The translations under genes and the position numbers were made by a program. A stretch of 64,000 bases of DNA from an uncultured Chloroflexia bacterium (GTDB lineage Bacteria > Chloroflexota > Limnocylindria > Limnocylindrales > CSP1-4), in NCBI GenBank assembly GCA_963833225.1, contig CAWHXD010000006.1, positions 288,001 through 352,000 of the forward strand. Reading direction: 5' to 3'. The notes beneath the pieces are model-generated. The model ran no database searches. It was not told the origin of the DNA and was given only the letters and a program-made list of their open reading frames with translations. The first letter of the stretch is position 1, and the number at the start of each line of letters is the position of its first letter. Below are positions 38,619-41,838 of this stretch, one piece after another.

Positions 38619-39271
38619 TGCCGGAGGCCCCCGCCGCCGCCCGGCTGCTCGTCGCGACCCGCTCGCGTCACAAGCTCCGCGAACTGGGCGAGCTGCTCGA
38701 CCTGCCGCCGGGCGTGGAGCTGCTCTCGCCCGACGACCTGGGAATCGAGGGCGAGCCGGACGAGACCGGGCGCACGTTCGAGACGAACGCGAGGATCAAG
38801 GCCCGCTACTACGCTGTCCGATCCGGCCTGCCGACGCTGGCCGACGATTCGGGCCTCGAGGTGGACGCCCTCGGTGGCGGTCCCGGCGTGTATACGCGCC
38901 GGTACGCGGGACCCGACGCGAGCGACGCCGACAACAACGCCAAGCTCCTGGACGAGCTTGCTGGCCTCCCGCCGGAACGGCGCGGGGCCCGCTACGTGTG
39001 CGTGCTCGCACTGGCGCTCCCGGATGAGGCCGGGCCACGCGGGGCCGTCCGGATCCTGGCCCGGCGCGGGACGTGCCGTGGCCGCATTGCCACGGGCCTC
39101 CGCGGCGACGGCGGCTTCGGGTACGACCCGTTGTTCGAGCCATCGCAGGAGCCGCCCGGCGGCCGGACGCTCGGCCAGTGGTCGGCGGCCGAGAAGCACG
39201 CCATCTCGCACCGGGCGCGCGCTGCTCGGCGGATGGCCCCGGTCCTGCGCGAGGTCCTGGCGCGGCGCTGA
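38618..39271 (+). CDS. rdgB: Non-canonical purine NTP pyrophosphatase (Ham1/RdgB)
   Basis: ETGRTFETNARIKA, ADDSGLEVDALGGGPGV, GFGYDPLF, KHAISHR. Confidence 0.95.
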   Translation: MPEAPAAARLLVATRSRHKLRELGELLDLPPGVELLSPDDLGIEGEPDETGRTFETNARIKARYYAVRSGLPTLADDSGLEVDALGGGPGVYTRRYAGPDASDADNNAKLLDELAGLPPERRGARYVCVLALALPDEAGPRGAVRILARRGTCRGRIATGLRGDGGFGYDPLFEPSQEPPGGRTLGQWSAAEKHAISHRARAARRMAPVLREVLARR

Positions 39272-39290
39272 GGTCGGGCGCGGGCCCCAC

Positions 39291-39833
39291 CTATGACGCG
39301 CGGTACTCCGCGGAGGCCATGTCCGAGTCCAGGAAGACCGAGGAAATCGACTCCCCCAGACTCAGGTCGTTGATGACGACCCCCCGCAGCGTCAAGGTCC
39401 CGGCGGCGCTGGACACCATGACGACGTCAAAGTGGGCGCCCGTGGCGCTGGCCTCGATCACGCGCGGGTCGAGCGCGTCGGTGGCGAGGGTGACCTCGAT
39501 GATGGAGGCCGACGCCCGGCGCTCCAGGGAATACGAGTTGATCTCCATCAGGGACGCGATCTCCGGGATGGCCATCGTCGGTCCGGCCGTGGCCTTTGGA
39601 GCGGCAGCGGGTTTGGCCGCGGGCGAAGCCGGCGTGCCACCCTCGCGCTGGACGGGCGTCCGTAGCGCAACCGGTCCCCGCCCGGCCAGGAGATCCACGA
39701 CCGAACGATTGCCCGATGCCACCTGAAGACCGAGCAGTACGTCAGCGGTGGTCTGCGGGCCGCCGTCCCGGGGCGCGATCCTTCGCTCCTGCTCGCTCGT
39801 GTCTTCCCGCGGGCGGGGCCGATGGGACTTCAT
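39291..39833 (-). CDS. Hypothetical protein: LQxxxGN..VQR leader plus Hcp/tail-tube-like C-terminal domain
   Basis: 3' part of ORF 39291..40586 from ATG 39833; see findings for the motif alignment. Confidence 0.65.
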   Translation of the reverse strand: MKSHRPRPREDTSEQERRIAPRDGGPQTTADVLLGLQVASGNRSVVDLLAGRGPVALRTPVQREGGTPASPAAKPAAAPKATAGPTMAIPEIASLMEINSYSLERRASASIIEVTLATDALDPRVIEASATGAHFDVVMVSSAAGTLTLRGVVINDLSLGESISSVFLDSDMASAEYRAS

Positions 39834-39883
39834 TGCTGGCCGCGGTGCATGCCCCGGACCGTACGGCCGCGCGGACGCCGGAG

Positions 39884-40999
39884 TCAAGGGACCCGGGCTG
39901 GCCGATGTTGCGACGGCTCGTGCTGGATTGGCTCCCCGTACCAGCGCCGGCCCAGCCAGAACGCGACGTTGACGAGGGCGATCATCACCGGGACCTCGAC
40001 CAGCGGTCCGATGACCGCGGCGAAGGCCGCCCCGCTGCCGATGCCGAACGTCGCCACGGCGACCGCGATCGCCAGCTCGAAGTTGTTGGACGCCGCCGTG
40101 AACGAGAGCGCCGTGGTCTGCCCGTAGCTGGCCCCCGCCCGGACGCTCATGGCGAACGTGACCAGGAACATGACCACGAAGTAGATGAGCAGCGGGATCG
40201 CGATCCGGACCACGTCCAGGGGCAGCGCGATGATGTTCTCGCCCTTGATCGAGAACATCACGACGATCGTGAACAGCAGGGCGATCAGCGTCACCGGGCT
40301 GATGCGCGGGATGAAGGTGCCCTCGTACCAGGCCCGGCCGTTGCGGCGAATCAGCAGGATCCGGGTCAGGAACCCGGCGATGAACGGGATGCCGAGGTAG
40401 ATGAACACGCTCTGCGCGATCTGGCCGATCGTGATGTCGACGGCCAGTCCCGGCAGCCCGATCCAGGTCGGGAGCACGGTGATGAACACGAACGCGAACA
40501 CGGAGTAGAACAGGACCTGGAAGATCGAGTTGAACGCGACCAGCGCGGCCGCGTACTCCGGATCGCCGCGCGCGAGGTCGTTCCACACGATGACCATCGC
40601 GATGCAGCGCGCAAGGCCGATCAGGATCAGCCCGGCCATGTACTCGGGCTGGTCACGCAGGAAGACCACCGCCAGCCCGAACATCAGCAGCGGGCCGATG
40701 ACCCAGTTCTGGACCAGCGACAGGGCGAGGATCCGCGTGTCCCGGAACACGCGCCCGATCTCCTCGTACCGCACCTTGGCCAGCGGTGGGTACATCATCA
40801 GGATCAGGCCCAGCGCGATCGGGATCGAGGTCGTCCCGACGCTGAGCCGGTCCAGCAGCGGGACCACGCCGGGGACCAGCGCGCCGAGCGCGATGCCGCC
40901 GGCCATCGCCGAGAAGATCCAGACCGTGAGGTAGCGATCCAGCAGCTTGAGGCGGCGCGCGGGTGCCACCGGCGCCGTGGGGGCCGTGACGGGGGTCAT
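39884..40999 (-). CDS. acr3: Acr3 family arsenite efflux transporter
   Basis: [54 protein letters not shown]. Confidence 0.96.
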
Positions 41000-41838
41000 C
41001 GTGCCGGCCGCTCGGCAACGACGGACGGCCGTGCCCGGCCCGCCGCGCGGAGCGCCACCTCGATGAACGGCCGCAGGCGGCCGGCAACCTCCTGCTCCGT
41101 TCTTCGGAATGCGGCCAGCTTCTGCTCGTCCGTGCCCTCGACCTCGGACGGATCGTCAAGGCCCCAGTGCAGCGTGTTGGTGGACCCGGGGAACACCGGG
41201 CACGTCTCGCGGGCCCGGTCGCACACCGTGATCACGTAGTCGAACCGCTGGTCAAGGAACTCGGTGATCACCTTGCTCCGGGCACCGGACCAGTCGATGC
41301 CGGCCTCGCCCAGGACGCGGATGGCGAACGGGTTCACCCGGGTCGCCTCCGTGCCCGCCGAGTGGACCTCGAAGTCCGCGCCGCCGTAGCGCGCGAGCAG
41401 CGCCTCGGCGATCTGGCTGCGCGCCGAGTTGTGCGTGCACACGAAGAGCACACGGATCGGATCGGCCACCGGGTTCATCCTCCTTGCGCGGCCACCGGCC
41501 GCGATCGTCTGCTCCAGGTCGACGAGCTCCCCCTCGAGCCGGTCGAGGTCATCACGCTGGCGCGCGATGGCGGCCCGTTGCTCGGCCAGCATCGGCCCCA
41601 GCCCGAGGTCCACGGCGCCCAGCTCCAAACACAGGCTTGCGAGCCGCCCGGCTTCTCGCGGGGCCACGCCCAGTCGCCGCAGGGCGACGACGAGCCGGAG
41701 CCGAGCCACATCGACATGCGCATAGCTGCGGTAGCCATTATCCCGCCGGTCCGGGACCGGCAGCACGCCTGCCCGCTCGTACCAGCGGACAGCTGACGGG
41801 GCAATCCCGACGCGGTGGGCGAGCTCGGCAATGCGCAT
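40996..41838 (-). CDS. MerR-family HTH fused to LMW-PTP-type arsenate reductase (ArsC)
   Basis: [22 protein letters not shown], then [32 protein letters not shown]. Confidence 0.85.

Follow-up and report, generated by a model that had tools for sequence, protein, structure and literature searches.

A two-module protein joining a leader associated with an extracellular contractile injection system to a predicted minimal Hcp fold in an uncultured Chloroflexota bacterium

The open reading frame, its modules and its family

A 64,000-nucleotide stretch of the genome of an uncultured Chloroflexia bacterium (GCA_963833225.1, contig CAWHXD010000006.1, positions 288,001 to 352,000; hereafter the window, on contig C6) contains an open reading frame (ORF), P0001, at 39291-39833 on the minus strand, which encodes 180 amino acids (aa) followed by a TGA stop at 39291-39293. 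The product opens with a hydrophilic Arg/Asp/Glu-rich N-terminus (residues 1-28; 39750-39833, minus strand) that is predicted to be without regular structure, with predicted local distance difference test (pLDDT) values of 47-58. The leader core LLGLQVASGNRSVVDLL, with two short predicted helices, and a second conserved element, PVQR, follow at residues 29-66 (39636-39749, minus strand), as delimited by a family alignment (A2), a motif scan and the structure model. An Ala/Pro-rich linker whose length varies among homologues (residues 67-85; 39579-39635, minus strand), recognised by its composition, its gapped and non-conserved alignment columns and a pLDDT of 48-53, then leads into a predicted minimal Hcp-fold domain (residues 86-180; 39294-39578, minus strand). 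Over the first 35 aa the mean Kyte-Doolittle value is -1.47, with eight basic and six acidic residues, and residues 64-86 include eight Ala and five Pro. An earlier interpretation made from the letters of the window and its translated reading frames, the sequence-only reading, had described the same order of disordered N-terminus, LLGLQVASGNRSVVDLL...PVQR, Ala/Pro linker and ~95-aa domain, and all of these segments are present. It had also placed the ORF 50 bp behind acr3, which is borne out: a 50-bp spacer (39834-39883, minus strand), with no promoter-like or terminator-like site, separates the ATG of the ORF from the stop of the upstream, co-oriented gene at 39884-40999. That gene encodes an SBF-family permease (PF01758, E 1.3e-59), which we take to be Acr3-like, in part from the ArsC-like fusion gene that precedes it. 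On its other side the ORF converges with rph-rdgB (Ham1 family), and a scan of window positions 39100-40100 returned zero promoter-like and zero terminator-like sites.

Third-position GC in the ORF is 0.86 vs 0.56 at second positions, and reaches 0.95 over the last 94 codons; this pattern is the expectation for a coding frame in the host genome, and the ORF thus reads as coding. The public gene call at the locus (P0003) begins only at Met87 and yields 94 aa, dropping the leader. We place the start of the ORF at the ATG at 39833 because the homologues' alignments to the ORF begin at residues 4-25 and an N-terminal stretch, 'M.DRRHRR.DED', is conserved in the family.

Among 1.84 billion representative proteins searched with HMMER, 30 matched at E≤1e-3, 11 at E≤1e-10 and one at E≤1e-30, the last being the shortened public call of the ORF itself. 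Family members are mostly 180-200 aa long with a module order identical to that of the ORF, so that conservation in relatives, on which the sequence-only reading depended, is found; a word-indexed search returned one match with the single sequence and 16 with a profile. In the two family alignments, A1 (31 sequences) and A2 (37 sequences), all members are built alike: a charged N-terminus is followed by LxLQxxAGNxAVxxLL, a spacer, [VL]QR, an Ala/Pro/Thr linker that varies and a ~100-aa domain opening with 'TMSIP.L'. Two columns of A2 are invariant (Q62 and G132), and at least 90% of rows agree at L36, Q37, G41, N42, V45, L48, R63, P90, S100, V152 and L168. The ORF is a real gene of a conserved two-module protein, more than a product of chance. 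The ORF copy itself had no match in Pfam or NCBIfam, even at E≤10, and NCBIfam likewise gave no matches for two homologues and for five of the six other leader-bearing proteins of the genome described below; the sixth had a DivIVA-like match far below cut-off (18 bits vs 260).

Predicted by AlphaFold2 with A2 as input, the protein had a mean pLDDT of 76.9, rising to 89-98 per ten-residue block from residue 81 onwards, where the model comprises eight strands and one helix; the leader helices (residues 29-39 and 43-49) were low-confidence predictions, and the model from the single sequence was unusable (pLDDT 33.7). When compared by VIA-align with 48,161 PDB representatives, model residues 82-180 were matched best by 11 entries, all from type VI secretion systems (T6SS; Hcp1, Hcp2-3, Hcp3, Hcp5 and Hcp fusions), with Z 11.7-13.3 and root-mean-square deviation (rmsd) 1.8-2.5 over 81-99 residues, on a scale where models without a true match usually peak at Z 7-8. 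Next below came a Staphylococcus hypothetical protein (Z 10.6), the tube of the Photorhabdus virulence cassette (PVC; Z 10.6) and tubes of phages, a gene transfer agent, the antifeeding prophage (AFP) and AlgoCIS (Z about 8-10). Foldseek returned 19 matches at E≤0.001, the first 11 listed all being Hcp proteins, with Salmonella Hcp2 at the top (E 1.8e-4). In the viral structure library BFVD, the best matches of the model were tail tube proteins. Look-alikes in a structure atlas, taken as leads only, were Hcp clusters at 0.92 for the whole protein and 0.83-0.84 for the C-terminal domain.

Sequence profiles point the same way. Matched against PDB sequences, the A1 profile found 12 entries at E≤10, of which 10 were Hcp proteins or Hcp fusions, with E-values that are marginal (best 0.0055); the other two were 4tv4, a Burkholderia protein without a name whose alignment covers the same region, and one unrelated entry at E = 4. 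The HMMER alignment of the family profile with PDB chain 1y12 (Hcp1) runs around the 'DKSTPNLMMACSSGKHY', 'ITLKEVLVSSVSTG' and 'NVTLNFAQVQVDY' blocks, essentially the block-by-block correspondence with Hcp1 that had been drawn in the sequence-only reading. At E≤1 the Hcp family PF05638 was matched by 25 of the 37 family members (best 2.7e-7), the ORF copy not being among them; three same-family copies that were scanned scored 24.6 bits (G411, above the cut-off of 23.5), 23.0 (G015) and 22.5 (G170), the last two just below it, and the ORF copy had no match at or above the gathering score. The C-terminal domain, as modelled, is a minimal Hcp fold. The proposal of a minimal Hcp or tail-tube-like domain is thus upheld by the structure searches, by the family profile against the PDB and by the Pfam matches of relatives.

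The closest known relatives of the domain are the T6SS Hcp proteins (PF05638; 8z7k, 1y12 and 5xeu), with which the predicted fold is shared over the whole domain (for 8z7k, Z 13.3 and rmsd 1.8 over 99 residues), together with the blocks of Hcp1. The protein differs from them in having ~95 aa for this domain rather than ~160, with loop and tail segments missing, and in the addition of an 85-aa N-terminal leader and linker; moreover, the host genome has no detected T6SS sheath, and the ORF copy lacks a Pfam match. Since model residues 82-180 align to chain ranges such as 2-159, the ~95-aa domain is short of a usual Hcp by ~40-60 residues, and its hairpin loop is the shortest in the family. Short Hcps of Bacteroidales T6SS (9vnd and 7yw0; 87-120 residues) align over most of their length with Z 11.8 and 12.3 and show that an Hcp can be pared down and still be a functional tube unit, although their genes belong to T6SS loci and they lack a leader. 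Tubes of eCIS, the extracellular contractile injection systems, and of phages (PF06841 gp19 and PF19266; PVC 6j0b, AFP 6rao) belong to the same superfold but score lower (Z 9.9-10.6), clearly below the T6SS Hcp entries, and the ORF has neither a Pfam match nor a sequence relation to them in its own genome. A paralogue of the genome's own eCIS tube was considered and rejected, as hhalign of A2 against the genome's gp19 tube gave a probability of 0.2%. Origin inside a T6SS was likewise rejected, the sheath family VipB/TssC (PF05943) and PF05638 having no match in the 86%-complete genome.

Met87 (39573-39575) occupies a hydrophobic position conserved at the start of the Hcp-fold domain, mostly Met and otherwise Leu, Ile or Val; it may have a structural role, be left over from the start of an ancestral Hcp, or serve as an internal start that yields a leaderless form.

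The leader and the contractile injection locus

A scan of the six-frame translation of the genome with the leader motif gave eight matches, seven of which lie 14-102 residues from a candidate ORF start; the eighth, at position 441 of an ORF on contig C19, looks like chance. The genome thus encodes seven leader-bearing proteins including P0001, and the six others range from 125 to 1233 aa. Five of these have no Pfam domain, and the sixth is a 202-aa DUF4157/eCIS_core protein (PF13699, E 6.8e-35) whose gene sits inside an eCIS-type locus on contig C8. In addition to DUF4157, this locus includes genes for a LuxR regulator, a WHD+AAA ATPase, Pvc16_N, a sheath, a gp19 tube, two unassigned ORFs, a second gp19 tube, CIS_tube+LysM, a Phage_base_V spike, gp25, Baseplate_J and Tail_P2_I. 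The eCIS-type locus on C8 is complete, the AAA+ ATPase included; we take the latter to be Pvc15-like.

Four residues, L, Q, G and N, do not vary in A3, an alignment of 22 leader sequences from 13 genomes, and the full pattern reads LxLQxxAGNxAVxxLL followed by [VL]QR after 10-25 residues. Within this bacterial family the leader stands at the head of many otherwise unrelated proteins. The leader profile gave chance matches only against PDB sequences, the motif occurring in none of these solved structures. A word-indexed search of a wider database with A3 recovered 26 proteins at E≤1, of which six carry PF13699 (one being the genome's own protein), seven PG_binding_1 and two annexin domains, one of the annexin proteins also having PG_binding_1, while 12 have no domain. 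The [VL]QR element (VQR in the ORF, about 39645-39653) is present in most leader-bearing proteins and also ends the DUF4157 protein ('SSVQRQ'); as a matter of speculation, it might be a second recognition element or a processing or cleavage site.

Among the leader genes are three on contig C7. At C7:417120-421195 (L021:7121-11193), two co-oriented adjacent genes encode 125 aa and up to 1233 aa, with an overlap between the stop of the former and the start of the latter, and both products carry LxLQRxAGNxAV and have no Pfam domain; judged by sequence and arrangement, they look like a trans-encoded cargo pair. At C7:502752-504467 (L022:7753-9465), a 571-aa leader-bearing protein without a Pfam or NCBIfam match has an HEFGH (HExxH-type) motif in its C-terminal part and may be a metalloprotease-like effector.

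The co-occurrence of leader and eCIS was assessed in a genus sample of 25 genomes, including the host genome, and in a class sample of 401. Within the genus, 16 of the 25 genomes match A2, and the match is confined to the leader in all except the host genome (G000) and G015; Pvc16_N is present in 13 and DUF4157 in 14. Leader matches occur in all 14 eCIS-marker-positive genomes vs two of the 11 marker-negative ones, with one match each. Across the class, where 17 candidates were scored per genome, 36 genomes are leader-positive, all in a single family (f1), against zero of the 263 genomes that represent the other four families. Pvc16_N was found in 42 genomes, such that 34 have both, two the leader only, eight Pvc16_N only and 357 neither. 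Of the leader matches, 119 in total, 49 are no more than 10 kb from Pvc16_N, spread over 32 genomes, and 70 are dispersed. The leader co-occurs with, and clusters near, this type of eCIS.

A second Pvc16_N subtype, scoring 164-175 bits vs about 130-150, occurs at G170:C1:822358, G305:C6:745650, G409:C2:66343, G185:C48:6713 and G274:C8:246434, and marks another eCIS type in the class. In G409, G185 and G274 it is the only subtype and the leader is absent, which fits a leader that is a system-specific signal.

The description of the leader as eCIS-type, as proposed in the sequence-only reading, therefore stands within this bacterial family, in that the motif heads the genome's own DUF4157 protein and leader genes co-occur and cluster with Pvc16_N. 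Its specific link to DUF4157 is borne out by the leader on the DUF4157 protein of the C8 locus, but not by the ORF protein, in and beside which no DUF4157 is found. The term orphan applies to the window, as sheath, tube, Pvc16_N and DUF4157 have zero matches on contig C6, but not to the genome, in which all such matches lie on C8. The search of the rest of the genome that had been proposed thus uncovered the eCIS locus and six further leader proteins, and T6SS markers (PF05638, VipB/TssC) had no match in the assembly, which is 86% complete.

Where the Hcp-like gene occurs and what surrounds it

Full-length homologues are rare, being present in two of the 25 genomes of the genus sample, three of the 401 of the class sample (a fourth, counted there at E≤1e-10, matches in the leader only) and four of the 301 of a family sample. 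In all, the full-length gene was found in five genomes of three genera (G000, the host; G015; G170; G411; G551), and all five have Pvc16_N, the background rate of which is 40 of the 138 genomes of the family in the class sample. With a narrower alignment (A4), one locus was recovered from a named genome collection (L036, the contig of G170:C1; same genus).

The gene always follows the end of an unrelated one: immediately behind that of an ABC-F ATPase in G015 and G170, ~1.4 kb behind a split ABC-F in G411, behind pntB in G551 and behind the Acr3-like gene in the host. No conserved partner gene adjoins it in the five genomes. Five same-genus relatives of the host keep rph-rdgB but lack the Hcp-like, Acr3-like and ArsC-like genes within 1.5 kb, and the host's own ABC-F orthologue, on C8, is not followed by an Hcp-like gene. 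Vertical orthology of the ORF with the same-genus copies was considered and rejected: identity is ~33% vs ~90% for Rph and 75-88% for RdgB, and the location differs. Given the contrast between ~33% and the ~90% of Rph, together with a long branch, the ORF copy is not a simple vertical orthologue of those copies.

What the protein may do

We favour the reading that the Hcp-fold protein is addressed to the eCIS by its leader, with a probability of roughly 0.58, by analogy with known loaded proteins. As a system-specific address, the leader would direct proteins to the phage-tail-like contractile injection system whose genes lie on C8, where recognition would probably be by the Pvc15-like AAA+ ATPase, as for the N-terminal loading sequences in AlgoCIS and PVC. 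The Hcp-like gene would then encode a trans-encoded passenger or accessory of the machine, and its Hcp-fold module could serve as an unfolded payload in the lumen, as a ring that docks on the tube or sits within it, or as a carrier for other proteins.

The literature drawn on here is represented by excerpts of each source. In these, Cgo1 and Cgo2, which are cargo of AlgoCIS, have the order disordered N-terminal domain, DUF4157 and C-terminal domain; loading needs the N-terminal domain and the AAA+ ATPase Alg15, whereas DUF4157 is dispensable; and loading sequences are alike within one system and unlike between systems (10.64898/2026.05.27.728243). DUF4157 is described as an eCIS core marker (PMC8213781), the N-termini of known eCIS toxins as hydrophilic and disordered (PMC11297309), and DUF4157 proteins of Streptomyces contractile injection systems as contacting the spike or tube initiator (PMC13277306; PMC11126660). 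Known eCIS cargo (AlgoCIS Cgo1/Cgo2; PVC Pdp1/Pnf) resembles the present protein in having a hydrophilic, disordered N-terminus common to the proteins of one system, and the resemblance to Cgo1/Cgo2 extends to a leader that precedes DUF4157 in the host genome too and to the presence of a Pvc15-like AAA+ ATPase. The present case differs in the sharply conserved motif of its leader, in a payload with a tube fold rather than an enzyme or toxin, and in the distance of the gene from the operon; the excerpted text of two sources reports eCIS loading signals as being without a conserved sequence (10.64898/2026.05.27.728243; PMC11297309).

Several points weigh against such addressing. In no genome of the five is the Hcp-like gene within 600 kb of the eCIS locus on one contig: it lies on another contig, or is 618 kb or more (G170) or 647 kb (G551) away; in the host it is on C6 and the locus on C8, and thus not within about ten genes of the operon. 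DUF4157 is found neither in the protein nor within two genes of it, the neighbours being Ham1/RdgB, the SBF permease and a MerR-LMWPc fusion. No recognisable toxin domain was found in the protein with Pfam or NCBIfam. The ORF copy is the most divergent of the family (zero Pfam matches, a shortened hairpin loop and a long branch) and has Ser where 'AGN' has a near-invariant Ala. A folded Hcp-type ring is wider than the tube lumen, so that cargo in the lumen would need unfolding. The co-occurrence is itself partly built in, because the DUF4157 protein bears the leader; the leader profile A3 itself draws in part on the tested genomes (genus members) for its sequences; and Fisher values for the co-occurrence overstate the case, since the genomes are kin and the counts not independent. 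Finally, 88% of known eCIS toxins are reported, in the excerpted source, to lie within ten genes of the operon (PMC11297309).

It is rather unlikely, in our estimate, that the leader is not a loading signal but a module for another export route, for envelope targeting or for a regulatory interaction, its genes simply travelling with the eCIS and the Hcp-fold protein being independent of the particle. Such a role would accommodate the 70 of 119 leader matches far from Pvc16_N, the two leader-positive genomes without Pvc16_N (G003 and G005), the position of the Hcp-like gene always behind unrelated housekeeping genes (ABC-F, pntB, Acr3-like) and the absence of the motif from solved structures; however, Pvc16_N is present in 34 of the 36 leader-positive genomes, 32 genomes have at least one leader gene no more than 10 kb from it, the leader precedes DUF4157 at the exact place of the experimentally required AlgoCIS loading region, and the leaderless state of G409, G185 and G274, with the second Pvc16_N subtype alone, fits a system-specific address. 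Unlikely, too, by analogy with the chaperone role of T6SS Hcp, is a chaperone or adaptor of the producer cell, in which an Hcp-fold ring would bind leader-bearing effectors and pass them to the ATPase or spike without being ejected. Here the lack of the ~40-60 residues of a normal Hcp, and of a conserved adjoining partner gene in the five genomes, has to be set against the Hcp fold itself, the small effectors that Hcp rings carry according to excerpts of PMC8262886, and the missing toxin domain.

We consider it quite improbable that the copy in the window is decaying or functionless, a relic of a family active elsewhere: its frame is intact, third-position GC over the C-terminal domain is 0.95, the fold is predicted with confidence and the near-invariant residues are kept bar one, even though it is the most divergent member, has a location unique among the six same-genus genomes compared, lacks a promoter-like site and is retained in the public gene call for its last 94 aa only. 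A true T6SS Hcp or the remnant of a prophage tail tube is highly improbable; the fold is common to both, but VipB/TssC and PF05638 have no match in the 86%-complete genome, no phage genes flank the ORF, in sequence it does not resemble the gp19 tube of its own genome (hhalign probability 0.2%), and a leader plus linker is foreign to both kinds.

The addressed-protein reading has a bolder extension, which we hold to be speculative and doubtful, namely that one eCIS clade uses a T6SS-style carrier: a minimal Hcp ring with the address leader of the toxins would be loaded onto or into the particle, ferrying leaderless partners by piggyback or forming a specialised ring of the tube stack with its leaders in the lumen. 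Were this so, the delivery logic of T6SS and eCIS would be joined, and LxLQxxAGNxAV...VQR would be the first sharply defined motif of an eCIS loading signal. We rate the protein as a combination of known kinds, an Hcp fold with an eCIS N-terminal address, that is neither a T6SS Hcp proper nor a typical operon-linked eCIS toxin. In the literature we found no description of an Hcp-fold protein with an eCIS-type leader, nor of the motif, although supplementary tables of the papers may list such proteins; 'Hcp' occurs zero times in the text of PMC8213781, PMC11297309 and PMC13277306.

A whole set of proteins in each genome bears the 17-residue motif, in which L, Q, G and N are invariant, and the motif follows a single eCIS type through 11 genera; what the ATPase recognises thereby becomes directly testable. 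With 70 of 119 leader matches away from the locus, it would also allow trans-encoded eCIS passengers to be found genome-wide, and an address tag for this eCIS clade that is short and can be transferred would be of interest for engineering. A tube-fold passenger in a lineage whose searched genome yielded no T6SS would be an unexpected pairing of two branches of contractile injection, and, if the Hcp-fold protein forms a ring, this would point to a new structural or carrier role.

Two minor observations concern neighbouring genes. The gene before the Acr3-like permease (40996-41838, minus strand) is a fusion of a MerR-type helix-turn-helix with a low-molecular-weight phosphatase (ArsC-like, LMWPc), in place of separate ArsR and ArsC. 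In G015 (L035, G015:C22) rdgB is matched in two overlapping pieces in different frames, and in G411 (L030, G411:C1) ABC-F is matched in several pieces; these splits are probably frameshifts or assembly errors of the draft genomes.

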